A DNA stretch of 64,000 bases from an uncultured Bacilli bacterium (GTDB taxonomy: Bacteria; Bacillota_I; Bacilli_A; RF39; UBA660): the NCBI GenBank assembly GCA_910583945.1, contig CAJTYF010000004.1:3597-67596 (forward strand), written 5' to 3'. Below, piece by piece: positions 1 through 43,977 of the stretch (positions within the stretch are counted from its first letter, which is position 1; every line of letters starts with the position of its first letter). The position numbers were made by a program, and so were the translations under genes. The notes beneath the pieces are model-generated. The model made no database searches. It was not told the origin of the DNA and saw only the letters and a list, made by a program, of their open reading frames with translations.

Positions 1-333
1 AGGTTCATGGAAGTTAAAGTGTAAAGTTTGTTTCTGGGTGTGTTTTTTATAGGTGAATGCATTTAAAAGATGATAGATTTTTTCAGAGATTTCTTCCACA
101 TAAATGGGAATGGTATCTAAAATGTTGTGAATGAGCCCTATGTGGTCACCATGGCTGTGGGTGATGAAAACGGCGTCATAAGCGGGAGTTCCTTTGGTTA
201 ATCCTTCTATTTCAAAGTCTTTTTCTTCATCAAGGTCACTTCCAAAGTCGATGATGATATTAGCGTGTTCGGTTTTAATTTCAGTGATACATCCCCCTAT
301 TTGATTGGTTCCTTTCCAAATTTTTACTTTCAT
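1..333 (-). CDS. MBL-fold metallo-hydrolase, N-terminal part (gene runs off the window start)
   Basis: Minus-strand ATG at 331-333 overlaps the upstream TGA stop as ATGA. Hand translation MKVKIWKGTNQIGGCITEIKTEHANIIIDFGSDLDEEKDFEIEGLTKGTPAYDAVFITHSHGDHIGL carries the HxHxDH metallo-beta-lactamase motif (THSHGDH). Not in the ORF track because it is truncated. Confidence 0.6.
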   Translation of the reverse strand, partial: MKVKIWKGTNQIGGCITEIKTEHANIIIDFGSDLDEEKDFEIEGLTKGTPAYDAVFITHSHGDHIGLIHNILDTIPIYVEEISEKIYHLLNAFTYKKHTQKQTLHFNFHEP

Positions 334-2402
334 AAAATACCTCTTAATTTACTTTCTAATAATGTTTTTAATTTTAGTTGTTCGGTGAATTTGGTTTCAG
401 TTCTTAAGGCTTCTTCTATTTCTTTTTTGGTTATATGAGGATTTATTTCGTTTTGTTTGAAGTAAGTAGAATAAAAAATTTTAGGGTAATCTATTTTTAG
501 TTTTGCAAGTCTTAAGAACATGACGCTATAAGATAAGAGGTGCCCTCTTGGGAAAAGGTATTTTATTTTGCTGACGGATTCGATTAACCACTCAGGCATC
601 TTTTTTTCTTGCATTAACCTTTTGTATTCTTCCCAACTCTCCTTTTTTAATCTTCCAAAACTGATGTCTTCCATTATTTTTAAGGCTTCTTTTCTTTCAA
701 ATTGATAGTTTAATAAGGTTTCTAATAAGTCTTCTCTTGAAGAAATGGTGTCTTTTAACTTGCAAATTTTCTTTTCGAGCAAGTTTTGAGCGTTTTCATA
801 CCACGTGTCTGTGCCATGAAAAAGACCATAGAGCTTTATTAAATCTTCTTGAGAGTAAAGTTTTAATGAGGGATCCTTTTTTTCTATAAAGTCTAATAAG
901 CATTCATGAAAGCCTAGTATTCCAAATGGATAAGTAATTTCTTCTTTAGTTATTTTTAATACTTTGGGACTATTAAATAAAGAAATGGTACGATTGTCGA
1001 TGACTAATTCGTGAATGTCTTCTTGAATTTGGTTTTGAATTTCTTCTAATAAGGTTAGTAACGAGTGTTCTAGGATGCCAAAACTGGTGATTTTTAAGTT
1101 TTCTGTTGGAATTTGAATGATTTTTTTATTTCCTATTGTTTTAAAGGGAAGAAAAGATGGGTCATTTTCTTTTGGGAAGATGTAGTTTCGGCCCACATGG
1201 ATTCCTTCGGTCATTTTTACTCCAACGATTTTTAAGGCTAAGGCTTCTTTTTCTTCATTTTTTAATGTGAGGTTAAATTTTAGGCAATAGTCTTCAATTT
1301 TTTTTAAGGCTTCTTTTGGAGAATAGACTTTTTCCGTTTTTAGATAGTAGACGTTATATTTTTCTTCTAAAGGTTTTAGGATTTCTTCTCTTTCATAAGC
1401 AAAGTTTATATTGATATCTGGCTTTTTATCAAAGTGACTTCCATAAAATATTTCGGGAGCTAAGTTTTCTAGAATGGGATTAAATTCGGTAATGTTTAAT
1501 AAGTAAGCAATAAATGAAGAAGCGACTGCCCCTCTTGAAGAGGTTAACTCACTTTTTTTGCCTTGCATAATTTCTGCCCATATAAGATAAATGCTTGCGG
1601 TATGCTGGTTGAAAATACTTGTTAGTTCGAGATTTATTCTTTCTTGGACTTCCAAAGGAATATTTTTGCCATATTTTTCTTCTACTTTTTCTTGAATTAA
1701 GGTTTTTAATTTTTCCTCTGATTCCTCTATCTCTGGTTCTTTAGGTTCTTCAAGAGTTATTTTTTCTATCTGATTTATTAATGTCTTTTGGTTTTCAATA
1801 AAAATTTCATGTTTGATTGGTTCATCAAGATAAGAAAATTCTTCCCAAAGTTCTTCTTTTGTTTTTAAGTGAAAGTCTTTTAAATGTTCCATTTTTTGGT
1901 TCATTAGAATGGCCCAGGCTAATTTGTCTTCTTTTTTTAGGTAACGGACTTCATTTAGGATCAAGGCTTTTTTGTTTTGTTTTTTCGCGAAGTCAAGGAT
2001 TTTTAAAACTTCTTCTTTCTTCGTAGTGCTAGGAATTCCTCTATAATCATAATAGAAATCCAGTGCGTTTGGTTCTTCTTGGATTAAAATAGTGACGACG
2101 TTTGGGCATTCTTTTAAATCTTCAAGAGTAATCTTCTTTAATGAAAGTAGTTTAAATAATTCTTTTATCCCTTGGTTGTTTTTGGCAATGACAATGAAGG
2201 ATAGTAATTCTTTGGTGGTTATTTCCATGCCATACATTAAATTTTTGTTTTGTTCTTTGGTTAATAAATTTACTTGATAAAAATCGGAGGTATCTTCTTT
2301 ATTGGCTAAAATAAAGGTTTTTTCTGTTTCCATTAACTCTTTTATCTCTATTAAACTCTCTTTATTTGTTTTGGTGTGGACCCAATGAAGGATTTCATTC
2401 AT
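330..2402 (-). CDS. C-family DNA polymerase alpha-like protein (DnaE/PolC-like palm-thumb-fingers core). The PHP region is degenerate and there is no clamp-binding or OB C-terminus.
   Basis: 690 aa. SSRGAVASSFIAYLLNITEFNPI matches the GRGSAAGSLVAY..ITD.DP motif of Pol III alpha. PDININF aligns with the catalytic PDFDVDF (DnaE) / PDIDLNF (PolC) motif. PRGHLLSYSVMFLRLAKLKIDYP matches the fingers helix (K.HAAAYA). The N-terminal ~230 aa retains the PHP-like LLAxNxxGYxNLxxL trace (FIVIAKNNQGIKELFKLL) but not the His residues. Confidence 0.55.
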   Translation of the reverse strand: MNEILHWVHTKTNKESLIEIKELMETEKTFILANKEDTSDFYQVNLLTKEQNKNLMYGMEITTKELLSFIVIAKNNQGIKELFKLLSLKKITLEDLKECPNVVTILIQEEPNALDFYYDYRGIPSTTKKEEVLKILDFAKKQNKKALILNEVRYLKKEDKLAWAILMNQKMEHLKDFHLKTKEELWEEFSYLDEPIKHEIFIENQKTLINQIEKITLEEPKEPEIEESEEKLKTLIQEKVEEKYGKNIPLEVQERINLELTSIFNQHTASIYLIWAEIMQGKKSELTSSRGAVASSFIAYLLNITEFNPILENLAPEIFYGSHFDKKPDININFAYEREEILKPLEEKYNVYYLKTEKVYSPKEALKKIEDYCLKFNLTLKNEEKEALALKIVGVKMTEGIHVGRNYIFPKENDPSFLPFKTIGNKKIIQIPTENLKITSFGILEHSLLTLLEEIQNQIQEDIHELVIDNRTISLFNSPKVLKITKEEITYPFGILGFHECLLDFIEKKDPSLKLYSQEDLIKLYGLFHGTDTWYENAQNLLEKKICKLKDTISSREDLLETLLNYQFERKEALKIMEDISFGRLKKESWEEYKRLMQEKKMPEWLIESVSKIKYLFPRGHLLSYSVMFLRLAKLKIDYPKIFYSTYFKQNEINPHITKKEIEEALRTETKFTEQLKLKTLLESKLRGIL

Positions 2403-2916
2403 AATATTTTTTTACCTCGCTTTCGTATAAAACTAAATCAATGTTGATGTCGTGATTTTTTACAAAATCGCTAATCATATTTTTTAACATGGGTCCTACT
2501 TCTTCATGCGTAAAGCCATATTCTCCTGTTCCAATACTTGGGAGTAAGATGTTTTTGTAGGATTTTACACCCAATTCATCCAATAGGTTTTGATAAGTTA
2601 TTTTTAGAATTTCTAAAGGATTTTTATAGTCCCAAACACGAGGACCTTGAACAAAAAGAATGTCCATATTTAAGTTAAATCCAGGAGTGATGCGTATTTC
2701 TCCGACTTTCATTTCATTGGCATTACTGTCATACGTGATATGATATTTTTCACTTGTGTAGGCTTCTAGTACTTGGACGCCTGCTTTTTTAAATATGGCA
2801 CCACTTACCCCCATCCCCATACGCATAGCGGGGTTGGTTGGGTTTACAATACAATCATGATTTTTTAAGATTTCATCACTGGTGATGTCACCGATTAAGA
2901 TGTTCATTTTGCCCAT
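2395..2916 (-). CDS. macro-domain protein (ADP-ribose binding/processing)
   Basis: 173 aa. N-terminus IGDITSDEILKNHDCIVNPTNPAMRMGMGVSGAIFKKAG fits the macro-domain GDIT...IVNAAN...GGGV.GAI..AAG signature. Overlaps its neighbours by 8 nt upstream and 0 nt downstream, consistent with operon translation coupling. Confidence 0.65.
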   Translation of the reverse strand: MGKMNILIGDITSDEILKNHDCIVNPTNPAMRMGMGVSGAIFKKAGVQVLEAYTSEKYHITYDSNANEMKVGEIRITPGFNLNMDILFVQGPRVWDYKNPLEILKITYQNLLDELGVKSYKNILLPSIGTGEYGFTHEEVGPMLKNMISDFVKNHDINIDLVLYESEVKKYYE

Positions 2917-3519
2917 TTAGTCTATCTCCTCAATCGAAAAATTTTCTTTGTTATAGGTTATTTTTATTTCGTTTTCTATTTTTCCTATTTGATAATTTTT
3001 AGGAATTTGATAATTCTCTATATCTTTTTCATTCATAAATAAAATAACTTCACTTTGATTTTCTTTCGCATAGTTTTCGATTTGATTAAAAATGGTTTCT
3101 ATGTCTTCTGGGGTGCTACTAATAAAATCATCAAAGTCATCGATTAGGATACAATCGTATTTTGAGTTATGTTCAAATATAAATTCTAAATAAGTTTCGT
3201 CCGAAAATTTGTTTTTGCTCATGATTAAGTCGGATGAACGAATTTTTTCGATGGCATTTACAAATTTGGTGGGATTGATTTTTTCTTTAGTAGTGTGGCT
3301 AACGCCTAACGTTGGGTCTAAATAGGTTTCGATGAGTTTATAGGATTCTCCTGATAATAAGGCAATGAGTTTACTTAAGTAAAAGTTTTTGGGAACATAA
3401 AATATTGGAAGAAAGACGGATTTGTTTTGATTTAGGGCATATTCGTTTAGAAGGTTGATAAAAAAAAGTATTCTTTCTTTGTTATTCATACTCGTGATAA
3501 TTGAAATTTTTGGGTTCAT
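2917..3519 (-). CDS. hypothetical protein, possibly a RecA/DnaB-C-like fold without Walker A
   Basis: 200 aa. YDCILIDDFDDFISS...EVILFMNEKD resembles the Walker B/strand region of DnaB-C/KaiC-like ATPases (LIVIDYLQ...). No GxxGxGK[ST] was found. Start overlaps the upstream stop by 4 nt. Confidence 0.45.
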   Translation of the reverse strand: MNPKISIITSMNNKERILFFINLLNEYALNQNKSVFLPIFYVPKNFYLSKLIALLSGESYKLIETYLDPTLGVSHTTKEKINPTKFVNAIEKIRSSDLIMSKNKFSDETYLEFIFEHNSKYDCILIDDFDDFISSTPEDIETIFNQIENYAKENQSEVILFMNEKDIENYQIPKNYQIGKIENEIKITYNKENFSIEEID

Positions 3520-4832
3520 GAGTTGCTCCTTTCAAAGGCAAAGATTCTTTCAGGATTTTGGTTGGATTCTTCAAAGATTAAGTCTACTTTTTCATCGTCT
3601 CTTTTTAAAGTGGTGATGATGTTTTGGGTAAATTTACTAAAGTTATGATAAAAGGGTAAATCTTCTTTAGGGTGACGTATTTGATAGGCATTCAAGATGA
3701 TGATTTTGGTGTTTTCATATTTGGCATATTGGTAAAGTTGTTCTACTATTTCTTCTCCCTCTTTCGAACAACGTTTTTGGAAAGTGATAAAGTCATTTAT
3801 GATTAAGTAATCATAATGTTTTTCTAAGTTTAAAATCTCAGTTTCTAAGTCTATTTTCTTAAAAAGTTCAGTGTCTTCAAAGTTTTCATAAGTACAATTT
3901 AGCGAATTATTTTTTAGTTTTCCATCAAAGTCACAAATTCTTATTTGGGTGTTTTCTTTTAAAACTTGTTCTTTTAGGATGTTTAGAAGCGTTAGGGCCT
4001 CTTGGTTTTCTTCACTATATAATACACTGATTTTATTATTGGTGAAGCGGGTTTCAAATGTTTTTTCGATTCCATTTTCTTCAAATGTTAAAATTTCATT
4101 TGTCTTTGAATTGAGGCTTACTTTTTCGCCCGTGTCAAAATGATAAATCCCCTCTTTTGCATTATAGTCGATTACTTTTACGTTATGGTGCTTATAAAAG
4201 TTTAGGCTCCCATAGCCAGAAAGTCCTCCTTCTAAAAATAAAAATTGGGTATTGGTTTTACGGGCGTAGTTCTGAATGGTTTCTAAAACTTTTACTCTTG
4301 CTTCTTCATAGGGGATTTGGAGCTCTTGTTCTAATTTTTTTTGTTCATATCTTAAACAACTATTGATGTCTTTTAGTATAACTAAATCATATTTTGTATT
4401 TTTATAATGTTCATCAAAAATAAAGTAAAGGTTGCCATAGTCAGCATAGACGGATTCGTTTATTTGAAAGTGACTGTTTTTGATGGTTTCTAAAGAGGCG
4501 AAAAAGGCTTCTTTGTTTGGTAAATCGTTTACAACTTGCCTTTCTTCTAGTCGTTGTTGATAACTAAATGGGGCTAGATAAGCGAGTGTTTTTTCCAGGT
4601 CAATGTTGGAAATTCGCGAAACGAGGTTGGCATGAAACCAACTCGTGTCTTCAGGAACGTCATTCACTGAGGTAATAAGTAAAACTTTTTTGTTTTCTTT
4701 TATGGCTGTTTCATAAATGATGCTGGTTAGTAGTGGTGTTAAATCTAAGGTAGACCCCCAATCTCTAGATATCCACAAATTAATTTCTTGGGTTAATAAT
4801 TTGTTTGTTATTTTTATTTGATTCATATACAC
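3516..4832 (-). CDS. hypothetical protein with two tandem degenerate RecA/DnaB-C-like halves (no P-loop)
   Basis: 438 aa. Two internal segments (YDLVILKDINSCL...TQFLFLEGGLS and YDYLIINDFITFQ...KIIILNAYQIRH) resemble the LIVIDYLQLM...VPVIALSQLNR block of DnaB C-terminal domains. There is no Walker A. This is a fold guess, not a family call. Confidence 0.45.
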   Translation of the reverse strand: MYMNQIKITNKLLTQEINLWISRDWGSTLDLTPLLTSIIYETAIKENKKVLLITSVNDVPEDTSWFHANLVSRISNIDLEKTLAYLAPFSYQQRLEERQVVNDLPNKEAFFASLETIKNSHFQINESVYADYGNLYFIFDEHYKNTKYDLVILKDINSCLRYEQKKLEQELQIPYEEARVKVLETIQNYARKTNTQFLFLEGGLSGYGSLNFYKHHNVKVIDYNAKEGIYHFDTGEKVSLNSKTNEILTFEENGIEKTFETRFTNNKISVLYSEENQEALTLLNILKEQVLKENTQIRICDFDGKLKNNSLNCTYENFEDTELFKKIDLETEILNLEKHYDYLIINDFITFQKRCSKEGEEIVEQLYQYAKYENTKIIILNAYQIRHPKEDLPFYHNFSKFTQNIITTLKRDDEKVDLIFEESNQNPERIFAFERSNS

Positions 4833-4930
4833 TCTTTCCTTTTCTACTTACATTATAGCACAATAAAAATGCCGTTTAGTAAACGACATCTTTTTTTATA
4901 TTTATTTCTTTTAATCACAGGTATCTTACG

Positions 4931-5971
4931 TTATTTTATAATTGTATTTACTTGATACCATTCTTTCTTTTTAAAGTCATACCCGATGTTCCCGTAAAGA
5001 TTATTGAAGTCTTCTAAGTCTCTTTCGATTTGACGTTCCGATTGCAAAAAAACTTTTTTTAGTTCTTTCGTGGTGAAGGTTTCTTTTCCTTTTAGATATT
5101 TTTTCAGTTCTTCTAGTTTTTCTCTTCTTTGGACACTTATTTTACGTAATTTATTTGTTAATAAGTTGTTAAGGAATAAACGATACAGTGTTTCGTCTTC
5201 AAAATAGTTCTCGTTCACATAATAAAAGGGACTGTATTTTAAATGGTATTTGTTTTGTTTTTTTACGTCTTCTGTGATGATATAGACATAAGTAAAGTTT
5301 TTAAAGAATGAGCGGTATTTTTTATCTAGTTCAATGCTATTTTGGGGTAAAAAATTTTCATTTATGATTGCCAGAAAGCCTTGTTTTCTTTTTAGTTCGT
5401 CTAGATTGTTTACTTTTTTTATGTAGGGAAATTGACAAGCAAATTCATTTTCTATTCTGTCTTTAAATTCTTGTTGTCTTTTGTCGGTGAAGTTTATGTT
5501 ATCTAGTTTCCCACAAAGGTAGACAATACGTTTTTCTTTTTTTAAATCGATAGTGTGCGGTTTTACGTTTATTGTTTTTATTGGGGCTTTTACAGATTTA
5601 AGGGCTTTTTTTATTTGGTTTTGAGTATTTAAAATGTTATAAAAGGAAACTTGTTCAAGATAGGCTTTTAATTTTAATAAGTTTTCGTTTAAGTTTAAAA
5701 AGAGGATGAGATCACTTTCAATGATTTCTTCACTGAACATGGGGATACCTGGTTTTATTTGAATGCTCTTTTTCACTTTTTCTTTTTCTTCTTCAGTGAT
5801 ATATCTAAGGTCAATGTAGCCGAACTGATTGATAAGTTTTTGGTCATAAAGCCTTGTAAAGTCTTCTATTTCTAGTTCATTCATGCCACTAATTCTTGTT
5901 CCTAAAATCAAAATGCGTTTTTCAGGATTTTCCTGAATGATTTTTTTAATTTTCCTAATTTCCTCTTTCAT
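4931..5971 (-). CDS. hypothetical protein with C-terminal HTH-like segment
   Basis: 346 aa. C-terminal TFTTKELKKVFLQSERQIERDLEDFNNL resembles DeoR/wHTH N-domains (ITxxELAExxxVSxRTIRRDL). Overlaps the NUDIX gene by 4 nt. Confidence 0.45.
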   Translation of the reverse strand: MKEEIRKIKKIIQENPEKRILILGTRISGMNELEIEDFTRLYDQKLINQFGYIDLRYITEEEKEKVKKSIQIKPGIPMFSEEIIESDLILFLNLNENLLKLKAYLEQVSFYNILNTQNQIKKALKSVKAPIKTINVKPHTIDLKKEKRIVYLCGKLDNINFTDKRQQEFKDRIENEFACQFPYIKKVNNLDELKRKQGFLAIINENFLPQNSIELDKKYRSFFKNFTYVYIITEDVKKQNKYHLKYSPFYYVNENYFEDETLYRLFLNNLLTNKLRKISVQRREKLEELKKYLKGKETFTTKELKKVFLQSERQIERDLEDFNNLYGNIGYDFKKKEWYQVNTIIK

Positions 5972-6432
5972 TCTACTCCCTTTATTTTGTTTAAGGCTTG
6001 CTCTGTCATTTCATCTCCAACACTCCCCCAATTCAAGTAATCATTTAACTCTTCTAAGGGGATCAAAATTCTTTTGTAAGTTTCCTGTTCGGCGGGATCT
6101 GGTCTTTCTTCACCAATGGATTTAATCGTTGCTAACATTCTTACTTGGGCATAGGAATCCTTTGTATCACCGATGACTTCTTGAAAGCCTAAATAGGAGA
6201 TGTTTTCTATTGTTACATTTACTTCTTCTAATACTTCGCGTTTTAGAGTTTCTTCTAACGTTTCATTTTTTTCGGGGTGCCCACCTGGAATGCGGTAGTT
6301 TCCCTTTTTTTCTTGATAAATCATGACGCGTTTCTTCTCATCTAAGATAATGCCAGAGACTTGGGTAATTCTCATATTTTTTGGTACTTCTTCAGTATAA
6401 TATTTATAATCAATCATTTTGTTTTCCACCAC
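5968..6432 (-). CDS. NUDIX hydrolase
   Basis: 154 aa. GGHPEKNETLEETLKREVLEEVNV fits the Nudix box Gx5Ex7REUxEExGU. Confidence 0.75.
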   Translation of the reverse strand: MVENKMIDYKYYTEEVPKNMRITQVSGIILDEKKRVMIYQEKKGNYRIPGGHPEKNETLEETLKREVLEEVNVTIENISYLGFQEVIGDTKDSYAQVRMLATIKSIGEERPDPAEQETYKRILIPLEELNDYLNWGSVGDEMTEQALNKIKGVE

Positions 6433-7436
6433 TATTCTTCTATATTCATATGCCTATTTAATTCTTCTTCTGTTGGAAGATTTTTTATTACTTCATTAGT
6501 TACTTTATTTATTATTTTATACTCACTAACTCCAACAGGTTTATTTATATATTTTAAAGTATAATCTACTATTTGATTACTTTTATTTTGACACATAATA
6601 ATTCCTATCGAGGGATTATCATTTTCTTCTTTTATTGCTTCGTCTAATGCTGCTAGATAAAAGCCCATTTTACCAGCATATTCAGGTTTAAATGCTCCCG
6701 TTTTTAGCTCAACCGCAATGTAACATTTTAATTTAATATGATAGAAAAGTAAATCAATTAGGAAATCTTGATTGTCTATAGTTATTTTATATTGATTTCC
6801 TACAAATGAAAAGCCTTTGCCCAATTCAAGTAAAATATTCTTTAATCTACTTAACATTTGACTCTCCAGTTCTTTTTCTTTGTAATTTTCGGTTAGTTCA
6901 AGTAAATCGAATACAAATGGTTCTTTTAGCATATTATTTGCAAGGTCACTATTTTGTTTTAAAGTTACATCAAAATTGTTATGTTTAACAGTATGCTCTT
7001 GTCTTCTATAAAGATTTGTGTCTATTTGATATAATAATACATTTTTAGACCAACCTTCTTCTAAACATCTTTTCATATACCATTTACGTACTTTTTTATC
7101 TTTCACTTTTTCAATCAACGATACATTATGTTTCCATGGTAATTGTGCACTTAGGTGCACAAATTCTTCATCTTCTTTATATTCTTTATAAAAAGACTTC
7201 ATATATTTTAAATTACGAACTGAGAATCCTTTTAAATTAGGGAAAGTAATTTTTAGTTCTAAGGCTATATTATCTATAAATTTATTTCCCCAATTACTAT
7301 TCTCTTCTAGTATTTTCCCTATATTATAATACAAATTAACTAATTTTTTATTTGCATCATTCATTATTTCAATTTGTGTTTTAGTAATCGCCTTTTTAAT
7401 ACTATTGATTATTTCTTGTAAAGTTTTATCTAGCAT
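6432..7436 (-). CDS. PDDEXK-family nuclease, DUF1016 / YhcG-like
   Basis: 334 aa. N-terminal LYYNIGKILEE... and C-terminal FLIDLLFYHIKLKCYIAVELKTGAFKPEYAGKMGFYL are typical of DUF1016 (restriction-endonuclease-like fold, D..E.K core). Its start at 7436 begins the long minus-strand gene string. Confidence 0.65.
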   Translation of the reverse strand: MLDKTLQEIINSIKKAITKTQIEIMNDANKKLVNLYYNIGKILEENSNWGNKFIDNIALELKITFPNLKGFSVRNLKYMKSFYKEYKEDEEFVHLSAQLPWKHNVSLIEKVKDKKVRKWYMKRCLEEGWSKNVLLYQIDTNLYRRQEHTVKHNNFDVTLKQNSDLANNMLKEPFVFDLLELTENYKEKELESQMLSRLKNILLELGKGFSFVGNQYKITIDNQDFLIDLLFYHIKLKCYIAVELKTGAFKPEYAGKMGFYLAALDEAIKEENDNPSIGIIMCQNKSNQIVDYTLKYINKPVGVSEYKIINKVTNEVIKNLPTEEELNRHMNIEE

Positions 7437-7509
7437 GATTTATCCCTCGTAAAGCCATCCTATCGTACATATGTTTAAGAGTCAAGAGATTTTTTTTATT
7501 TTCAAATCA

Positions 7510-7580
7510 ATTTATGCTCTCTATAATTGCTTGATTTCTATTTTTGATTGTTTATTTTAAAGATATAGTTTTTTCTAAAT
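7510..7580. repeat. ~70-bp direct repeat, copy 1 (partner at 9852-9926)
   Basis: Core GATTTCTATTTTTGATTGTTTATTTTAAAGATATAGTTTTTTCTAAA at 7533-7580 recurs near-identically at 9879-9926. A looser match (AATCnATTTATGCT...TATA..T..TTG) extends ~25 bp further left. Confidence 0.7.
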
Positions 7581-7671
7581 ATAATTCATGAGATATTTTG
7601 TCTGCATGAGTTTTTTAAGTACAATTGTATTAATATTGCCTTTGTTTTAATTTCTACAAAGTCATAGATAT

Positions 7672-8176
7672 TTATTTTTTTATTCTTTTTCTATCTAAAA
7701 CATGCCAAACATCAATTTCCTCTTTTTCTGGTATTTCAAATAGAGAAGAAACTTTTTTTAATAATCCTTCATCAACATAAAAACTGGAACCTCCATTACC
7801 TGCTAAAACTTTACTATTTCTTTCTTCTATGTTTTCATACCAAGTTTTATCATCAATATCAATATAATGCATTTCTACGAAGATATTATTATCATAGCCA
7901 AACTTTTTAATTTCATTTCTATTTTCTTTTGTCCAAAAGCCCCAATCTAAAATCACCGTACATCCCGCATTCACAATTTCTACGGCTTTTTTTCTTAAAT
8001 ATAAATTCACTCTTCTTGCAAATTCATCATAATCTTCCCCTTGTTTATTATTTGTCAAATCATAAGTGACTTCATCCGTAGATAAAATCACAGCCTGTTC
8101 TTTTTCTTTTAATTGATTCGCGTAATAAGTTTTGCCACAACCAATTTTTTCCACATATACAAATTAATTTTGCCAT
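7672..8176 (-). pseudogene. P-loop NTPase / small kinase-like gene with a frame disruption in a poly-A run near its 5' end
   Basis: The track ORF 7672..8154 starts at GTG and reads (V)EKIGCGKTYYANQL. An upstream ATG at 8174-8176 reads MAKLICICGKN... in another frame. A 1-nt change in the GGAAAAAATTGG run (~8143-8154) would fuse them to MAKLICICGKIGCGKTYY, a canonical Walker A (GxxGxGKT). Confidence 0.45.
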
Positions 8177-8190
8177 AAATCTAATCACCT

Positions 8191-8774
8191 TTATTTCCTT
8201 AATCCATCGCTTTGTACCCAAGAATAAAATAAACTTTTATCTGGAATATCATATTCGTAATCTAATTTTGAATTAAAACTATCTATTAAATCAATTGCCT
8301 CTTTTAATACTTCCTCTTTGTTTTTACCTGCTATATCTAAAATAACTTCATTAGGTAATAAATTTCTTTCCATTATTTTTCTAGTGGATACTTCTAATAA
8401 TTCCAAGTCAACTAATCCATTTGCACCACGAGAAATCATTTGTCTTTTATTTTGTTCATAGTCACTTGAGATTAATTTTAATGTAACAAAGTTTGTGCCT
8501 TTAATATTTGTGGTATTTCTCTCGTTCTAATGTCATTGAAGTCAAGTGCTATAATATTTTTCAGTCCCTTATCATAAAAATATTTTAATAATAGAATAGA
8601 AGATTCCCACATTATTTCCTCTTCAAATTTTCCTTCATCAACATTATTTGGTATTCCAAATTCTGGAATCATATTTTGTTCAAAATATACACCGTTATAA
8701 TGTTTATATAATTCTCTTGCTAATGTTGTTTTTCCAATACCACTTGCCCCAATTATAAATATATAATCTTTCAT
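8191..8774 (-). pseudogene. split P-loop kinase-like gene (track ORFs 8478..8774 and 8191..8439)
   Basis: The N-terminal fragment has Walker A IIGASGIGKTTLAREL. A second co-directional ORF begins 38 nt downstream of where it ends. The two total ~180 aa, the usual size for this family, so a frameshift or nonsense split of one gene is the likelier reading. Confidence 0.4.
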
Positions 8775-8819
8775 TTTCGTTCCTCCATTTATCTTTTAAT
8801 TATGACAAATTTGGCATAA

Positions 8820-9618
8820 TTAGATTTATTCATTTAATTCAAAGTTTTTCTTTTCTTCTTCTACAGCACTAATTAATTCTTGTTCTGTAGGTAAATGCAA
8901 TTTATAACTAGAAGAAAAAATATTTTTATTGGCTTCTGGTAGAGTATATTTTACAACAGTCTTGTTTTTCAATGTTGATAATAAAATACCAACAGTTGGA
9001 TTTTCATCGCAATTTTTTAAAATCTGTTTCTAAATAATCTGTATTTTCTTTAATATGAAGAAATTCTAAAACAAATGAATCTTTTACTAAATCTTTACTT
9101 GATTCTAAAACTTGACCTTTTTCAGCAAGATTTAAAATTTTTTCTTTATTAGTAGATAAGGCTAATCTTTCATATAATAGAGAACCGATTTGCCTCCCAA
9201 GTTCCCTAACACTCCATTTAGTATTTATACATTCATTGAATTAAAAATTCCTTTTAGTTTCTTCCTCTATCTTTATTAATTCCAAATAATGTGACCAACT
9301 TAATTGCGACGACACTGTTGTCGCAATTGGAAAATAAATATAAAACTTTCTCATTCTCTCTAAATTTCTTTTAGAAAATCCTTTGCCAAATTCATTCGTT
9401 AATTTTTGTGATAGTTTCTCCAAAACAGCATCACCATAACTTGCTCTTTCATCTCCCTGTTGGATTTCCATAATTGCCTTGCCAATATTCCAATAAAGCT
9501 TAAGCATTTCCGTATTTACAGCACTATATACTTTATTTCTACTATTAATAACTAATTCTTTTATATTATCAAATATAGTATTAATTTCATTATCATTTTT
9601 AATTAATTCATTGTCCAT
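8820..9618 (-). pseudogene. DUF1016/YhcG-like nuclease pseudogene (paralog of 6432..7436)
   Basis: Track ORF 9241..9618 (125 aa) encodes only the DUF1016 N-terminus (LKLYWNIGKAIME...). Hand translation of 8820-9240 on the minus strand yields the missing middle and C-terminal segments (ECINTKWSVRELGRQIGSLLYERLALS... and ...NCDENPTVGILLSTLKN...) in other frames, broken by stops. Confidence 0.55.
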
Positions 9619-9851
9619 TAATTGCCTCCAATTTTCAATTCAAATCATAAAGACTTCTTATGTCTAAATTATACTCTAAGTAAAACTCTTCCATACTCCA
9701 TATTCATTTTAACTTCTTTTAATTGTAATAAGGGAATTCTTTTAGTTAAACTTATGAAACTTGCTAGCTACCGATTATGTCAATATAAACTTAACTGATA
9801 AACGATTAACTATCGTAAATACTGTTTAAGATTCGATTGTTTTTTAAATAA

Positions 9852-9926
9852 ATCTATGCTATTTATAGTATTTGCTAGATTTCTATTTTTTGATTGTTTA
9901 TTTTAAAGATACAGTTTTTTTCTAAA
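9852..9926. repeat. ~70-bp direct repeat, copy 2 (partner at 7510-7580)
   Basis: See copy 1. This copy overlaps the 3' end of the HD-domain gene. Confidence 0.7.
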
Positions 9927-14748: not shown

Positions 14749-17109
14749 CTATTTAATTTCGAAACTTCTATTAGAAGATAAATTAGAGTTAAAGAAATCG
14801 GGTAGGCCTATCATTAACGTTTTAATTATTAAAAAGAAACTTTCGAGTTGAATCATTTTGTTTAAATTTTTCTGACTCATTCCTAGACTTCTTAAAATCG
14901 AAAATTCCATTCTTCTTAGGTTGATGTTTGAACTTAGGGTATTAAACATACTTAAAATACTTATTAATGCTATAAATAAAAGAATAAAGTAAAGGAGACC
15001 TTTTATAACAAGGTAAAGTAAATAGATTTCGTAATTTTCTAGTGCTCGATTTTCATATTGAATATGATTTGAGGCGTATTTCTTTACAATTTGATTTATT
15101 TCATCGTCTAATTTTTTAAATTTTCGACTATTTATTTCTATTTTCCAATATTTCTTTAAATAGTCTTCATAAGTTTCATTGGTGATACTACTAAAATTTT
15201 TGGTATTTTTACTAATAAAGTTGGTGACTAGATAATTAAATTGTTTTAAGTCTACAACTAATGTCAGTGTATTAAATTTGTTTAAGTAATTCTTATTGGT
15301 TAAGTATAGATTTTCTAAAGTTAAATACGGCTCATGTGTAATATACTGAGTTGTATTTTCTTGGTCCTGGATTTCTATTTCACAAATTTTTATTCTTTCC
15401 AGATTGTCTTTAAAGGCTTCAATTGTTTCGCTTTCATTATTTTTTTCAATTTCTTTTAAGTTATACAGAATCATTCGGTCGTCTTTTAATCCTAATTCTT
15501 TTTTATATTTTTGATAATTTTCTTCATCTAAACCTACTAAAGAAAGAGTATGATAATGATTGTTTTGATTTAAATACTCTGGGTTAAGAAATTCTTCTTC
15601 CCCTTGAAAATAAAGAAAAGCTATTTTTGATTCTACATAGTCATCCATTAATTTTATATTTTTAATTTCTTCAATAATTTTTTGATTGTCTTTTTCCTCA
15701 TTATCAAATAAAGTAATGTCTATATCAAAAGAATGATGAAAGGTGTTTTTTGTTTGTTCTAAAAAATAATTTATAAAAGTAGAGCCAACAATAAATAAAA
15801 CAAAACTTATGGTTAGCGAGGTGGTAATGAGCAAGAATTTATTACTGTTTCTTTTAATGTTTTTATAAGCCAGTTCTCCAATGGCTCCACTTATTTTTTT
15901 TATTAGGGGATAACTGAATTTTTTTATTTTTAAATTGGTTTCGGTGTTTCTGATTGTTTGAATGGGTGGAACATGACTTGCTGTTTTGGCGGGTTTTCTA
16001 ACGGATAGAAAAATGGTTAGGATGATAAATAAAACGGAGAAAATGAGAAAAGAGATTTCTAAATTTAATTTAAATGGAAGCGGTAATATTGTTTTTAATG
16101 TTTGATTTATAAATAAAAGAATGAGTTCCATTAGCCCTAAGCTTAATCCAAAACCAATTATGATTCCTAAGGATCCTACTAAGCTAGCTTCATAAAGGAG
16201 CATTTTATAAATCTGTTTTTTTGTGGCTCCTATACATTTTAGTCTTCCTAGTTCCTTTTTTCTTTCTATTAGGGAATTTTCAAATGAATTGTAAATGATT
16301 AAAAAGCAAAAAACACTCATAATAGATAGAACAATCCCTAAATAGAAATAAATACGAAATTGATCTAATTTGTTTTGATACGCTCCATAAGCCACTAATA
16401 AGCTCGTATTTATGTTGGTATTTTTAAAAGATTCACTTTTGTTTTTCACTTCACGTTCTAAATTTAACTTAGTAGCGGTCTTCTCAATTTTATCATAAAT
16501 ATTAAAATAACTTTTATAGGTAATAAAAAAATAAGTATGAGCGTTAGATTGATCCAGAAACTCTTTTGTGAAGGCTACAGGTTTATAAATGCTTTTTAAC
16601 GTATCATAATGGTATTCTTGAATTAATTTATTCTCGTTATAAATTCCAACTATTTTATAGTTATGCATCATTCCTTCAAGATCAAGATTCATTTCTTGAG
16701 CCAGATTGTTTGATATTAGGATTTCATTATTATTCTGGGGCTCGCTTCCTTTTATTAGGGTTACATATTCTTTTAGCTCTTCATTGTAGGTAAAAATGTT
16801 TAAAACGGTGTCTTCGTTATTGTTTAATTTAATGGGAATTTCTTCTTTTTTCTGGGTGCATTTAATTGATTTTATCTTTTTGTCTTCTTGGAAAATTTTT
16901 ATAGATTGATAGTCTAAATCTTCAAATTGAACATGGAAATCGCCGCTACTTTTTAAGGCTTCCGTGATGTTTTGTTTTCTTATTGTAGAGGCACCTATAC
17001 CAATAAAGAATAACAACATTGATGTTAAAATGATACTTATTAAAGTCATTTTGGTTCTTTTTTTATTTAACTTTAATTGTTTATTGGTTAGTGTAATCAA
17101 TGTTTTCAT
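14749..17109 (-). CDS. FtsX-family ABC transporter permease (BceB/MacB-like), 3' end frameshifted
   Basis: 786 aa. FtsX signature ELGRLKCIGATKKQIYKMLLYEASLVGSLGIIIGFGL and a second FtsX module near the C-terminus. After ...TLMIGLP the expected C-terminal tail (ISLTLIYLLIEVSKLN...YSVKKIKNTNIIESIKNENI) continues in another frame down to ~14587, implying a frameshift near 14810. No cognate ABC ATPase gene is adjacent. Confidence 0.6.
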   Translation of the reverse strand: MKTLITLTNKQLKLNKKRTKMTLISIILTSMLLFFIGIGASTIRKQNITEALKSSGDFHVQFEDLDYQSIKIFQEDKKIKSIKCTQKKEEIPIKLNNNEDTVLNIFTYNEELKEYVTLIKGSEPQNNNEILISNNLAQEMNLDLEGMMHNYKIVGIYNENKLIQEYHYDTLKSIYKPVAFTKEFLDQSNAHTYFFITYKSYFNIYDKIEKTATKLNLEREVKNKSESFKNTNINTSLLVAYGAYQNKLDQFRIYFYLGIVLSIMSVFCFLIIYNSFENSLIERKKELGRLKCIGATKKQIYKMLLYEASLVGSLGIIIGFGLSLGLMELILLFINQTLKTILPLPFKLNLEISFLIFSVLFIILTIFLSVRKPAKTASHVPPIQTIRNTETNLKIKKFSYPLIKKISGAIGELAYKNIKRNSNKFLLITTSLTISFVLFIVGSTFINYFLEQTKNTFHHSFDIDITLFDNEEKDNQKIIEEIKNIKLMDDYVESKIAFLYFQGEEEFLNPEYLNQNNHYHTLSLVGLDEENYQKYKKELGLKDDRMILYNLKEIEKNNESETIEAFKDNLERIKICEIEIQDQENTTQYITHEPYLTLENLYLTNKNYLNKFNTLTLVVDLKQFNYLVTNFISKNTKNFSSITNETYEDYLKKYWKIEINSRKFKKLDDEINQIVKKYASNHIQYENRALENYEIYLLYLVIKGLLYFILLFIALISILSMFNTLSSNINLRRMEFSILRSLGMSQKNLNKMIQLESFFLIIKTLMIGLPDFFNSNLSSNRSFEIK

Positions 17110-17200
17110 TATAATACTCTTTTCTTTATTTATTATAATTAATTTTTGTTCTAAATTCTATTAAAAAAGAAATCATTTTTTTGATTTTGATTTCCTTCTT

Positions 17201-18193
17201 TTATTTTCGATTCTTTTTTAGAATTTCTAAATATTGATTTTGGTATTTTTTTAAAACTAAGTCTTCTTTTCCCCGAACCATAGCTATAAAGTTTAATCTT
17301 CCTTCTATTACTTTTTTTAATTCTTTAATCAGTTTATTTTTATGTATATTTTGACAATCGTCCTTTTCATCTTTTTTAAAATAATTTAAAGCGGTCGCAT
17401 AAAGCCCCTCTTTTTCACAATGATTCAGTAATGCTCTTAATTTCTTTATGTAAATTTTTTTTACGTTTACCTTTTCATTAACAATTAAACCTGTCACTTC
17501 TTTTCTCTCCCGTTGCCAACTATAATTGGTTTTGGTTTCATTGATGGTAAAGCCACTTCTTTCGATTAATTTTCGTAATTCTTGGCCAAGTATAACTTCG
17601 TTGTCATGATTTCTTTTGACAATTTTTTCAGAAAAAAGGGTTGGACTCGATAAAGTGATATCATCCGCGTATCTTGTATAATGAAATTGATACTGTTCAC
17701 TTAAATGAAGTATTTTTTTATCTAATGAATAACACACAATATTTGAAAGACTGGGTGAGGCTGGTGACCCTTGAGGGAGTGCATTGTGAAAACAGGAAAG
17801 GTTTGCCAGAATGGTTGCGACTTCTTTTGGTAAATTAAATGGCTGGTTCATAAAAATGCCTCGAACACGTCCAAAATGAATGGAGGGAAAGAAATCTTTT
17901 AAATCAATATTTAAAATGTATCCCGCTTTACTATGAATAATAGCATTATCTACAATATTTTTACCTTTGATAAAGCCATATTGACATTCTAAAAAAGTAT
18001 ATTTTTTATCAATATACTCTTTTATTTTTTCTTGTACTTTTTTTAGATTCCAATCAGGTGATGCAATGGTACGATATCCGCCACTTCGTTTTGGCAATTT
18101 AAATGTGTAGTATTTACCTTTTGTTAAAGCTTCATTCAATACTTCCTCATCAATATCTAAAATATAGCTTACATAATTTTTAGGATTTTTCAT
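17201..18193 (-). CDS. retron-type reverse transcriptase
   Basis: 330 aa. RT motifs LPQGSPASPSLSNI and YADD (RYADDITL). Retron hallmarks NAxxH (VDNAIIHS) before motif 1 and VTG (RKEVTGLIVN) after motif 7. The size is typical of retron RTs. Confidence 0.75.
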   Translation of the reverse strand: MKNPKNYVSYILDIDEEVLNEALTKGKYYTFKLPKRSGGYRTIASPDWNLKKVQEKIKEYIDKKYTFLECQYGFIKGKNIVDNAIIHSKAGYILNIDLKDFFPSIHFGRVRGIFMNQPFNLPKEVATILANLSCFHNALPQGSPASPSLSNIVCYSLDKKILHLSEQYQFHYTRYADDITLSSPTLFSEKIVKRNHDNEVILGQELRKLIERSGFTINETKTNYSWQRERKEVTGLIVNEKVNVKKIYIKKLRALLNHCEKEGLYATALNYFKKDEKDDCQNIHKNKLIKELKKVIEGRLNFIAMVRGKEDLVLKKYQNQYLEILKKNRK

Positions 18194-18318
18194 ACTAATT
18201 CCTCGAATTCTAACATTATTGATAAACCCGTAAGAGGTTTTACATATCGTAAGATATGTATTGTTTATACATTTTAATAGTCACTGCGAAACGCTCGTGA
18301 TAGGCAATTCTTATTTCA
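18194..18318 (-). ncRNA. candidate retron msr-msd non-coding RNA (structured leader upstream of the RT)
   Basis: A 125-nt non-coding gap between the ATPase stop (18319-18321) and the RT ATG (18191-18193). It holds two adjacent hairpins with the same CGTAAG loop (TACATAT-CGTAAG-ATATGTA at 18241-18260 and AAACC-CGTAAG-AGGTTT at 18224-18240). GCGAAACGC is at 18286-18294. Exact ncRNA bounds are unknown. Confidence 0.35.
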
Positions 18319-39888: not shown

Positions 39889-40128
39889 ATGAATGCAAGA
39901 GAGACTTTAAACTTAATATCAAAACAATGGTGTGATCTAAATGATTTAAGAAAACTTACAGGGCTAGGAAAAAATAATGCTATCAAGTTAAAAAATGAAA
40001 TAAGAATTGATTTAGAAAACAAAGGCTATTTACTTCCTAACAAGCTACTTCCTATGAATGAAGTTGTAAGTTATCTCAAAATAAATATAAGTTATCTTCA
40101 AAAAATGGCAAAAGAAGTTATTAACTAG
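39889..40128 (+). CDS. small hypothetical protein, first gene of the plus-strand module
   Basis: 79-aa ORF preceded by the RBS AGAGAGGTGAG. Confidence 0.45.
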   Translation: MNARETLNLISKQWCDLNDLRKLTGLGKNNAIKLKNEIRIDLENKGYLLPNKLLPMNEVVSYLKINISYLQKMAKEVIN

Positions 40129-40141
40129 AAAGGAGTTTTAA

Positions 40142-41095
40142 ATGAAAACAATAAGTGAAATGAGAAAAGAAGCAACAAAAAAAGACTTCATAGTTGATAA
40201 CCTAATGAAATCTAAAGGATTATATTGTCTTGTTGCTAGACCAAAAGTTGGTAAGTCATTATTGGCGTTACAACTTGCCAGCTCTATTGCAACAGGAACA
40301 ACCTTTTTAGGATTTAGGACAAGTCCATCTCCTGTCTTATATATTAGCACAGAAATGAATTCTACGCAATTAGTTGATAGAATTGATAAGATGAACTTAC
40401 AATTTAATGATGATAATTTCGTTATGATAGAACAAAATCCAAGTAAAAGAAAACTAAATTTAATGGATTTACAATTAAAATTTCAAACATTTGCTAATGA
40501 CTATAAAGGTCGATTTGTAATCATAGATATGTTTAGTGGAATTGATTTAAACAATGGTTATAATCTAAATGATTATCAAGATATGGGACAAGTTGTAATT
40601 CCAAAATTTAGAGAACTATGTAAAAAATATGACTTTACTATTCTTTTAGTCCATCACTTAAATAAGAATAATACTTCTTTGGGTAGTACTGCTATTGATG
40701 GATCAGTTGATGGAAAAATCACTTTAAAGCAGGATTCAAACCTAAAGAATAAGATACTTTTAAATTATGAAAGTAGAGACTATGAGGGATTAGATTTAGT
40801 TCTAAAACGAAATGAAAATTTATTATTTGAACTATCAGAAGTCGAGAGTGATGACTTAAATTATAATATACTAACTTTTCTAAATTATGCGATTAAACAA
40901 AAAGAATTTTCATTTAATGTATCGGATATAACAAGTAAATTAAACTTACAAATTACTCCATCAGCATTTGGAAAATTATTAAATAACAACATAGCAAATT
41001 TAGAAAAAGAAGGACTTCATATTGAGCAAAAAAGAACTTCTACTGAAAGAATATATGTTGCAAAATATGAAGAACCGACTTATGAAAATGAATAA
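40142..41095 (+). CDS. RecA-fold AAA_25/DnaB-C-like ATPase (RepA-like, common in Gram-positive mobile elements)
   Basis: 317 aa. Walker A ARPKVGKS in LYCLVARPKVGKSLLALQLA. Walker B-like RFVIIDMFSG. Confidence 0.6.
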   Translation: MKTISEMRKEATKKDFIVDNLMKSKGLYCLVARPKVGKSLLALQLASSIATGTTFLGFRTSPSPVLYISTEMNSTQLVDRIDKMNLQFNDDNFVMIEQNPSKRKLNLMDLQLKFQTFANDYKGRFVIIDMFSGIDLNNGYNLNDYQDMGQVVIPKFRELCKKYDFTILLVHHLNKNNTSLGSTAIDGSVDGKITLKQDSNLKNKILLNYESRDYEGLDLVLKRNENLLFELSEVESDDLNYNILTFLNYAIKQKEFSFNVSDITSKLNLQITPSAFGKLLNNNIANLEKEGLHIEQKRTSTERIYVAKYEEPTYENE

Positions 41096-41311
41096 TTTTC
41101 ATAAGAATTTTTGTAACTTTTATTATAAAAGTTTAGTTTTTGATAAAAAGCCTTTATTTTAAGGCGCAAATATGAAAATTAGAAGTAATTTTACTACTAA
41201 TTTACTACTTTAGAAAGAGTTTTGATAAAGAGTCTTGATATGTTATTTTAAAGAAACGATGGAAAGTCGTTTTTTAATTTTCCTAATAATGGTATAATAT
41301 TTATTAGTGAG

Positions 41312-41746
41312 GTGTTATATATGACAAAAGAAGAACAAAGAAACGAGGCAATTTATAGAATAAAAGAATTAACTAAAAAATTTAATCTTAATTCAAACAT
41401 GTTAGACTTTTTTGAAAATGGAAAAATTTATGGACTTGATTATGTAGAAGATAGTAAAATAAAAGATAGGAATAAATTGATTTCTAGTATTATAGCAGAA
41501 TGTCAAAATAAATATAATTCAATAGTTTATTACTATTTTATTATTGATGTAAATATAGAGGGTTATAATTTAGAGATACTAAATATATTTTATGTTGGAC
41601 AATATAAAGAAGATTGGGAAAATGAAAGATTATCAAAAGATAATGAAGTATATATACGCAGTTATGAACTTGGTAGTCCAAATTATCCCGAGTTAAGTTT
41701 CGTAAAAGTAAATTCAGTAGATGGTAATTTAATTAGAATATCTTAA
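41312..41746 (+). CDS. hypothetical protein
   Basis: 144-aa ORF. Confidence 0.45.
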   Translation: MLYMTKEEQRNEAIYRIKELTKKFNLNSNMLDFFENGKIYGLDYVEDSKIKDRNKLISSIIAECQNKYNSIVYYYFIIDVNIEGYNLEILNIFYVGQYKEDWENERLSKDNEVYIRSYELGSPNYPELSFVKVNSVDGNLIRIS

Positions 41747-42112
41747 AAAACAATTAGTTATATGCTAATTGCTTTTTTAATATTTCCAAAAAAATATCAA
41801 TATTCTATAAAAATTTGATTATTTTTTATTATCATTAAGACAAGCCTCTATCATACTTATAATAACATTATTAAAAGATGTATCATTGTCTTTTGCAATT
41901 TTTTCTATTTGTTTTACTAACTCTTCCTTTATATATAAAGTCTTATATACTGATACTATTTTCTTTTTTGTCTTTTTAGGTACAAAATTCATTTATCACC
42001 ACCACCCATTATAATTTTAACTTGTTAATAAAATAAAAGATAAATTAGAAAATTCTGGTGTATTTTTTAAAAAATAGTGATATAATTATATTGAACTGGT
42101 GGAGTTTAGAAA

Positions 42113-43938: not shown

Positions 43939-43977
43939 TTTTGGTACAAATAATTGTGATCCAAAATTATTTTTTGT

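Follow-up and report, generated by a model that had tools for sequence, protein, structure and literature searches.

Three paralogous DnaB-like modules with predicted loss of the ATPase site, encoded beside a degenerate PolC-type polymerase in uncultured gut Bacilli

Three paralogous modules in two adjacent proteins

Here we describe two neighbouring minus-strand genes, D2 and D1, in a 64,000-nucleotide (nt) stretch of DNA from an uncultured Bacilli bacterium (assembly GCA_910583945.1, contig CAJTYF010000004.1, positions 3,597 to 67,596), referred to below as the window. Our analysis suggests that the two proteins carry three diverged copies of the C-terminal domain (CTD) of DnaB-family helicases, all of which appear to have lost the site for ATP hydrolysis, and that they are probably maintained as non-enzymatic subunits of a gene cassette that also encodes a dead polymerase and nucleases. 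The parts of D2 and D1 to which we refer are the following (all coordinates are those of the window).

3516..4832, minus strand: D2, an open reading frame (ORF) of 438 amino acids (aa) with two tandem P-loop-less modules that resemble the DnaB CTD
4077..4832, minus strand: N-module of D2, residues 1-252
3519..4076, minus strand: C-module of D2, shortened, residues 253-438
2917..3519, minus strand: D1, a 200-aa ORF with one module that resembles the DnaB CTD
4743..4769, minus strand: SRDWGSTLD, degenerate P-loop of the N-module
4668..4691, minus strand: KKVLLITS, beta2 of the N-module
4227..4250, minus strand: TQFLFLEG, beta5 of the N-module
3993..4019, minus strand: YSEENQEAL, P-loop position of the C-module
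3927..3950, minus strand: TQIRICDF, element of the C-module
3687..3710, minus strand: TKIIILNA, element of the C-module
3469..3495, minus strand: TSMNNKERI, P-loop position of D1
3400..3423, minus strand: KSVFLPIF, element of D1
3031..3054, minus strand: SEVILFMN, element of D1

A preliminary description of this DNA, made from the letters alone, had picked out three motifs in the two proteins, and all three are where it placed them: YDLVILKDI forms the Walker-B-like strand of the N-module (D2 residues 148-156, nt 4365-4391), YDYLIINDF lies in the C-module (D2 residues 340-348, nt 3789-3815), and YDCILIDDF lies in D1 (residues 121-129, nt 3133-3159). The pattern common to them, YDxx[ILV][ILV]xD[FI], occurs three times in the window when six-frame segments of at least 100 aa are considered (20,266 aa), on each occasion in D1 or D2. 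When the 638 residues of D1 and D2 were shuffled, just 20 of 20,000 shuffles contained the motif at least once.

BLASTP aligns D1 to the N-module over 160 residues (E = 2e-6) and to the motif region of the C-module (E = 6e-4), and profile comparison with hhalign relates the D1 family to the N-module with 98.3% probability (E = 1.4e-14) and to the C-module with 82.6% probability (E = 9.7e-6). Note that the N- and C-modules match one another weakly when compared directly (E = 0.004), so that D1 is the member that links the three. When the three are aligned jointly, beta1 (ISIITS / INLWIS / ISVLYS), helix 1, beta2, the YD-containing strand, the helix that follows it (..NYAK..) and beta5 all fall into register. 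Judged by their sequences, D1 and the two modules of D2 are true paralogs.

Structural evidence for a DnaB-type fold

Sequence libraries are silent on these proteins. Pfam, NCBIfam, PADLOC and PHROG offer nothing credible for D1 or D2 (in Pfam and NCBIfam there is no match at E <= 1). Searches of PDB sequences with either single sequences or family profiles gave no credible match either, and the profiles did not find DnaB. Library matches to G-alpha, ZAP, proteasome and NYN proteins all had E > 0.001 and were set aside.

We modelled D1 with AlphaFold2 (AF2), using as input a 10-row alignment that combined D1 orthologs with both modules from each of three D2 orthologs, and supplying neither templates nor DnaB or any other outside sequence. 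The resulting model (m833dd9074857) has a predicted local distance difference test (pLDDT) score of 82.4 and a predicted template modelling (TM) score of 0.81, with all five models at 78-82 pLDDT. Foldseek returns 92 PDB matches to it at E <= 0.001, and the best 50 of these 92 are without exception DnaB-family helicases or ATPase domains (E = 1.5e-7 to 5.6e-5, TM(query) 0.54-0.70, identity 8-16%). The PDB matches include Geobacillus DnaB (2r6c, E = 1.5e-7), Vibrio DnaB, G40P of phage SPP1 (3bh0), the Helicobacter DnaB C-domain (4a1f) and the helicase domain of T7 gp4 (1cr1). Against BFVD, almost all annotated top matches are phage DnaB-like helicases. In the model, beta1 starts at residue 4, and D1 has no N-terminal domain.

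The preliminary description had called the modules RecA- or DnaB-C-like and had named a non-RecA predicted fold as the outcome that would speak against this. What the prediction and the structure searches give for D1 is a RecA-like fold of the DnaB family; according to the model, then, D1 has the fold of a DnaB CTD. For the two D2 modules the same fold is suggested by their homology to D1. A single-sequence AF2 model of D2 reached a pLDDT of 40.6, and a Foldseek search with that model found nothing at E <= 0.001.

A link to DnaB is also visible at the level of profiles. We compared a merged profile of D1 and the N-module with a profile of nine DnaB C-domains (E. coli DnaB, seven phage helicases and a genuine DnaB_C protein encoded elsewhere in the window). 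hhalign aligns the two over 144 colinear columns (E = 1.4e-4, 52% probability), and the helical insert specific to DnaB, which follows beta2 and precedes beta3, is part of the aligned stretch. Controls for the merged profile, namely eight unrelated window proteins, gave E = 0.017-0.76 over 7-37 columns. The profile of D1 on its own is not significant against DnaB (E = 0.019), significance being reached by the merged profile alone. This support is modest, yet it agrees with the D1 model.

Might the fold be a generic one, derived from RecA-, KaiC- or AAA-like P-loop NTPases, with a KaiC- or RadA-like ancestor as good a candidate as DnaB and the DnaB ranking a mere preference of Foldseek? The TM scores are moderate and the identities low, Pfam DnaB_C does not match, similarity between D1 and the window's genuine DnaB_C protein is undetectable, and KaiC has a tandem arrangement comparable to that of D2. 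However, RecA, RadA and KaiC are all absent among the best 50 of the 92 PDB matches (KaiC surfaces only among the non-significant matches of the poor D2 model), the annotated BFVD matches are almost all DnaB or gp4, and the hhalign alignment to DnaB CTDs is colinear and includes the helical insert. We therefore consider a generic origin improbable, if the best placed of the alternatives to a dead, selected DnaB derivative.

Degeneration of the ATPase site

That the P-loop is missing had been pointed out before, and we find neither [AG]xxxxGK[ST] nor even GK[ST] in D1 or D2. In the profile alignment, DnaB ARPSMGKT is aligned to D1 SMNNKERI, replacing Gly by Glu15, Lys by Arg16 and Thr by Ile17; the Walker A positions read NNKERI in D1, DWGSTL in the N-module and EENQEA in the C-module. 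The D1 model places beta1 at residues 4-10 and helix 1 at residues 13-30, and the loop of just two residues between them indicates that D1, as modelled, has no phosphate-binding loop. The position of the catalytic Glu (SLEM in DnaB) is Y41 in D1 and A or E in its orthologs, and hence not conserved. The DnaB sensor SQLNR is aligned to NEKDI of D1, and the arginine-finger motif KxRNG was not found in the D1 and D2 modules when they were aligned to DnaB. To judge from these alignments, Walker A, the catalytic Glu and the sensor have been lost in the D1 and D2 modules. The window's genuine DnaB_C protein, unlike D1 and D2, has all canonical ATPase motifs.

The proposed resemblance to the Walker B and sensor regions of DnaB survives in part. 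D1 does have an Asp at the Walker-B position (D127; D or E in orthologs), whereas Lys takes its place in the N-module and Asn in the C-module, and no sensor or arginine-finger residue is kept. One position further on, D128 is near-invariant across nine modules, all of which have an acidic residue or Asn. The N-module also contains R-D-W-G-S-T where DnaB has R-P-x-M-G-K-T, with Lys replaced by Ser and with Gly26 replaced by Asp in the D2 ortholog P0010; this may be the vestige of a P-loop. Homologs with an intact P-loop, which the preliminary description had proposed to look for as confirmation of a degenerate ancestry, did not turn up in protein, profile, phmmer or contig searches, and the relatives that were found all lack it. 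The case for a degenerate ancestry thus rests on the fold, the borderline profile-profile match and the possible P-loop vestige.

Some of these residues could be read differently. If D1 and D2 were non-canonical NTPases that are still active, or if they bound some other phosphate ligand (ADP-ribose comes to mind, with Macro and NUDIX genes nearby, as described below), they might form a working motor or switch. D1 orthologs keep E15, R or K16 at the position of the Walker Lys and D or E127 at that of the Walker-B Asp, the near-invariance of D128 extends to all nine modules, and the N-module has GST where DnaB has GKT. On the other hand, no module has a glycine-rich loop, beta1 and helix 1 are separated by just two residues in the model, the catalytic Glu, sensor and arginine-finger positions are not conserved, the Walker-B Asp is replaced in both modules of D2, and the Gly of GST is itself Asp in P0010. 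Activity of this kind strikes us as unlikely, a shade more so than a generic origin of the fold.

A conserved cassette with a dead polymerase and motif-intact hydrolases

D2 and D1 are part of a closely packed minus-strand row, NUDIX-X-D2-D1-Macro-Pol-MBL, where MBL stands for metallo-beta-lactamase. Besides D2 and D1 it comprises the following features.

5968..6432, minus strand: NUDIX hydrolase gene, 154 aa (Pfam NUDIX, E = 7.8e-15)
4931..5971, minus strand: X gene, 346 aa, with a P-loop-like N-terminus and a C-terminal region resembling a winged helix-turn-helix (HTH)
4833..4930, minus strand: intergenic region upstream of D2, with hairpin and T-run, extended -10 and ribosome-binding site (RBS)
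2395..2916, minus strand: Macro gene, 173 aa, MacroD-type (Pfam Macro, E = 2e-19)
330..2402, minus strand: pseudo-polymerase gene (Pol), 690 aa, a truncated PolC-type core of the DNA polymerase III alpha subunit
1..333, minus strand: first 111 aa of the MBL gene, encoding a beta-CASP/RNase J-like metallo-beta-lactamase nuclease, the remainder of which lies beyond the left end of the window

The D2/D1 and Pol/MBL junctions are ATGA overlaps (3516-3519 and 330-333), the D1 stop abuts the Macro gene without a gap, and Macro and Pol overlap by 8 nt, which indicates co-translation of the row from D2 to MBL; NUDIX and X overlap by 4 nt. On inspection, the 98-nt gap between X and D2 contains a hairpin and T-run after X, then TGcTATAAT and then the RBS of D2. 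At the level of such patterns, the D2-D1-Macro-Pol-MBL unit therefore probably has a promoter of its own, although a consensus promoter scan made no call in this gap. The RBS (AGGAAAGAG) precedes an ATG two codons inside the listed GTG start of D2, and D2 probably starts at this ATG (residue 3), giving 436 aa, the length called at the orthologous locus L017. Public gene calls make D2 longer by 19 residues, at 457 aa, in P0001 and at loci L014, L018 and L019. In the window this extension is closed by a TAA within the putative -10 box, and the 457-aa calls in other strains are probably an artefact of gene calling.

The neighbouring polymerase had been suspected of being inactive, and two of its three catalytic palm aspartates are indeed missing in every ortholog. 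Pol is clearly related to PolC in the PDB (9qpc, E = 2.6e-60; 3f2b, E = 1.2e-57), with matches limited to PolC positions ~640-1330, and scores 313.6 bits against NCBIfam PolC, for which the cut-off is 873. Its 690 aa (compared to ~1445 aa for PolC) comprise a degenerate PHP domain, palm, thumb and fingers, to the exclusion of the exonuclease domain, the OB domain and the C-terminal clamp- and duplex-binding tail. A complete PolC, by comparison, has an N-domain, an OB domain, a PHP domain into which a DnaQ exonuclease is inserted, palm-thumb-fingers and an HhH/clamp-binding tail. The palm motif PDIDLNF is replaced by PDININF in the window (nt 1401-1421), PDIFINF in L001 and ISIDINF in L004, and KLDILGHD by SFGILEHS in the window (nt 1062-1085), the third catalytic Asp having become Gly in the window and in L001 and Asn in L004. 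QHPGG is degenerate too in the ortholog alignment. Altogether, the three catalytic Asp positions read D-N-G, D-F-G and S-D-N, respectively. At least two of three catalytic carboxylates are thus gone in each lineage, and not the same ones, which suggests that Pol has been non-catalytic for a long time. On this evidence we regard Pol as a PolC derivative that, by its sequence, is catalytically dead. Tblastn with Pol finds ordinary PolC only, at 24-29% identity.

The nuclease encoded next to it looks different. MBL has an intact HSHGDH motif (nt 142-159), full-length orthologs match Lactamase_B and RMMBL, and the family profile matches EF2904 (2az4, E = 2.6e-18) and RNase J (E = 2.4e-16). HxHxDH and the later beta-CASP His and Asp motifs are invariant among orthologs, so that the nuclease is apparently intact as far as its motifs tell. 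The Macro and NUDIX proteins are well over Pfam thresholds and have kept their motifs as well; matches of Macro to O-acetyl-ADP-ribose deacetylase-like families in NCBIfam are under the cut-off. Both genes are missing from L004, the most distant orthologous locus, while NUDIX is present at close ones. The active sites of replication type have, in other words, been lost while the hydrolases and the nuclease of the same cluster keep their motifs.

Two further proteins accompany the row. X is kept upstream of D2 at all loci and has a degenerate P-loop-like N-terminus that reads GTRISGMN in the window (nt 5879-5902), GTRCSGKK in L001 and GTMGSGIE in L004, with both Gly residues invariant. The ortholog in L001 matches PF01637 ATPase_2 under the cut-off (E = 5.2e-5), and the C-terminal winged-HTH-like region (nt 5006-5077) matches the HTH part of a PADLOC WYL profile (E = 3.5e-4). 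Going by these patterns, X may be another pseudo-NTPase of the cassette, joined to a winged-HTH-like C-terminus. A search of the PDB with the X profile gave repeat-summed ubiquitin matches, which we judge spurious. Y (412-457 aa) is encoded downstream of MBL, and so outside the window, at all loci. It has an invariant GRID...E.K pattern that we read by eye as a PD-(D/E)xK nuclease motif; the libraries lend this reading no support, and the Y profile finds nothing in the PDB. A comparison of Y with the D1 and D2 modules shows no relation. In PADLOC-DB v2, D1, D2, Pol, MBL and Y match no defence-system model; what matches there are is weak or generic, namely Macro to DarG (E = 3.4e-6), X to WYL and NUDIX to PDC-S07.

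Distribution, gene order and selection

The D1/D2 family is tiny. An exhaustive phmmer search with D2 among 1.84e9 representative proteins yielded two clusters, at 49% and 34% identity. Word-indexed searches gave one match for D2 and seven for D1, consisting of near-identical copies and D1 orthologs at 66% and 59% identity, and a profile search gave two matches. Scans of genome, viral and metagenome contigs recovered orthologs only and nothing new, and the operon had no blastn match among phages or plasmids. The relatives come from metagenome-assembled genomes labelled 'Bacilli bacterium' or 'Tenericutes bacterium', all uncultured and some from mouse-gut samples, and define three lineages of uncultured gut Bacilli/"Tenericutes".

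Across these lineages the order X-D2-D1-Pol-MBL-Y is identical in L001 and L002, in L017-L019 and in the distant L004 (33-40% identity). We estimated the ratio of non-synonymous to synonymous substitution rates (dN/dS) by the Nei-Gojobori method for D1, D2, X and Pol at three levels of divergence. Overall it lies at 0.1-0.3 for these genes, with a range of 0.18-0.29 for D2. Two of the comparisons are as follows.

Window vs close strain L014: D2 0.18, Pol 0.22, X 0.12; D1 not calculable (0 synonymous, 1 non-synonymous difference)
Window vs L001: D2 0.21, D1 0.14, Pol 0.19, X 0.17

Together with a gene order that is kept at 33-40% identity, these ratios indicate functional genes under purifying selection rather than genes in decay. 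In this respect the suggestion of a coherent module of pseudo-enzymes holds up well: D1 and D2, both without a P-loop, sit in a conserved row with a dead PolC core, and D1, D2, X and Pol are under purifying selection.

A separate observation concerns the close strain L014, from which the region 330-6432 diverges in a mosaic fashion. Amino acid identity is 99% for D1, 98% for Macro, 96% for D2, 91% for Pol and 89% for both X and NUDIX, and the synonymous divergence dS spans 0 to 0.5 across the cassette genes. Such unevenness suggests recombination within the cassette.

Could the row nonetheless consist of decaying remnants of a replication module from a prophage or an integrative and conjugative element, without function at present? 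All active sites of replication type are gone, the family is small and lineage-restricted, and there are gene fragments and insertions nearby. But low dN/dS at three divergence levels, intact reading frames, identical gene order among distant orthologs, start/stop overlaps and the motifs kept by enzymes of the same operon leave this scenario with very little probability. The slimmest chance of all goes to a compositional artefact of AT-rich coding without any RecA-like fold, which a genome of ~28% G+C and blank sequence libraries might bring to mind, but which sits badly with the motif statistics, the paralogy of the modules, the D1 model with its DnaB-only best 50 matches and the profile controls.

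The surroundings of the cassette

Positions 6432-9870 (minus strand), between an HD gene and NUDIX, form a variable insertion hot spot. It contains a full YhcG/DUF1016 PDDEXK nuclease (PADLOC candidate family PDC-S02, E = 5e-125), two small P-loop-kinase-like ORFs (7672-8154 and 8478-8774, the latter with GASGIGKT) and a lone DUF1016_N fragment (9241-9618). Its content is different or fragmented in the sister strains L014 and L017-L019, and in L001 HD is followed directly by NUDIX. Further along, a retron-type reverse transcriptase (RT; 17201-18193) is part of a minus-strand block at 14749-19053 and matches PADLOC retron RT models (up to 3e-114, RT part only). Directly upstream of it lies a stand-alone DnaB_C protein (18319-19053; Pfam E = 4.3e-52) with intact ATPase motifs and no DnaB N-domain, and downstream a permease of 786 aa that resembles FtsX. 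L001 lacks the block, which may represent a retron whose effector is an ATPase of DnaB-C type. With the retron RT, YhcG and the hot spot, the neighbourhood of the cassette is rich in accessory or defence-type genes.

Three other features of the window deserve mention. A 735-aa fusion of kinase (AAA_33), metallophosphatase and T4-type RNA ligase (31708-33915, minus strand) resembles bacterial Pnkp RNA-repair enzymes. Two ORF positions downstream of it is a 346-aa ORF without Pfam matches (29852-30892, minus strand). Finally, a plus-strand block at ~40000-52600, in which the GC/AT skew is reversed, is probably a mobilisable element that has integrated; it encodes a tyrosine integrase of Tn916 type (48241-49530) as well as a Mob_Pre relaxase-like protein (49915-51348).

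A possible role for D2 and D1

What might these proteins do? That D1, D2 and Pol are the working replicative helicase and polymerase of the host we reject, since the active sites are absent. The explanation we favour, and to which we would give somewhat better than even odds, is that D2 and D1 are dead derivatives of DnaB-family motor domains that have been selected as non-enzymatic subunits, presumably to serve the linked nucleases as scaffold or sensor. Imagine the modules assembling into a hetero-oligomeric, DnaB-like ring or arc, which would be a pseudo-hexamer if two D2-D1 pairs contributed 2 x (2+1) modules. The assembly would bind single-stranded DNA and/or the dead PolC-like core and, together with the latter and the winged-HTH protein X, would recognise DNA structures or partner proteins. 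The replication-like proteins would thereby position or license the two nucleases on replication-fork-like DNA or foreign replication proteins. X, D2, D1, pseudo-PolC, the beta-CASP nuclease and the PD-(D/E)xK-like Y would, on this account, be a domesticated replication module of phage or mobile-element type, a descent suggested by its combination of initiator- or loader-like, helicase-like, polymerase-like and nuclease components. Of the roles that such a system could play, defence or conflict seems the most likely; DNA repair or damage tolerance, by analogy with ImuA/ImuB/DnaE2 (see below), would come second and residual maintenance of an element third.

A number of points weigh against this explanation. 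The fold of D2 is inferred from D1 rather than modelled, the AF2 alignment of D1 is shallow (10 rows), and the sequence link to DnaB is borderline at 52% hhalign probability. R/K16 and D/E127 of D1 occupy the positions of the Walker Lys and the Walker-B Asp and may serve non-canonical ligand binding. Oligomer, DNA binding and interaction are products of inference, and the PD-(D/E)xK label of Y was assigned by eye. Lastly, D1, D2, Pol, MBL and Y have no significant PADLOC model match, and the recurrence of the same flanking genes in two lineages fits lineage-specific housekeeping or repair as well as it fits defence.

A bolder version, which we put forward as speculative and regard as rather unlikely, takes the cassette for an immune or conflict system of a kind not described before, a 'pseudo-replisome', whose DnaB-like ring and dead PolC core mimic replication proteins and license nucleases. 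The ring of D2 and D1 and the PolC core would imitate replication proteins of host or phage. They might serve as a bait to which the replication or hijacking factors of phages bind, or else poison the helicases of invaders in the manner of dominant-negative subunits. Once engaged, they would license the two nucleases (beta-CASP and PD-(D/E)xK), and in some lineages Macro and NUDIX would assist by handling ADP-ribose.

Whatever the role of the cassette, its three-lineage distribution limits generality. It does provide a compact natural case of replication-module exaptation, a test case for the ATP-free use of DnaB-type rings and a candidate for a new nuclease-based defence or repair system. It also illustrates that orphan families of this kind escape sequence libraries, and that structure prediction seeded with a protein's own internal paralogs is needed to place them.

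Comparison with known systems

RecA-fold proteins and polymerases that are dead as enzymes are known kinds of scaffold, as exemplified by ImuA/ImuB and the Rad51 paralogs. In the yeast Shu complex, Csm2-Psy3 are Rad51-paralog pseudo-ATPases, RecA-fold proteins that lack functional Walker motifs and bind DNA as hetero-oligomeric scaffolds; they differ from D1 and D2 in being eukaryotic and of Rad51 rather than DnaB type, with no detectable sequence relation and no operon context. KaiC, like D2, has two RecA-superfamily domains in tandem on one polypeptide but, unlike D2, has kept both P-loops together with ATPase and kinase activity.

The nearest known counterparts are DnaB, SPP1 G40P and the helicase domain of T7 gp4, which D1 resembles in predicted fold, in the order of its elements, in a colinear profile from beta1 to beta5 and in a C-terminal beta-hairpin region. 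The DnaB CTD, in contrast to D1 and D2, has Walker A, catalytic Glu, sensor and arginine finger and gives a Pfam DnaB_C signal. DnaB also has an N-terminal primase-binding domain and one such motor domain per subunit, whereas D2 and D1 distribute a tandem pair and a single module over two proteins.

In terms of composition, the most instructive parallel is the ImuA/ImuB/DnaE2 mutasome, in which RecA-like ImuA and the catalytically inactive Y-family protein ImuB work with a C-family polymerase (PMC12926913). There, too, RecA-superfamily accessory proteins, a C-family polymerase homolog and a dead polymerase-like scaffold subunit come from an operon. Here, however, the dead partner is the C-family polymerase itself, which derives from PolC and not from DnaE2, the active polymerase type of the mutasome. 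Moreover, its partners with a RecA fold belong to the DnaB type, two nucleases are linked, and a Y-family gene is absent from the cassette at every locus examined. We found no account, in family libraries or by full-text literature search, of three DnaB-type pseudo-modules combined with nucleases and a PolC core that is dead. What sets the present cassette apart from these systems is that a helicase motor, in three copies, and a replicative-type polymerase both appear to have become pseudo-enzymes, under purifying selection and in translational coupling to a nuclease whose motifs are intact.

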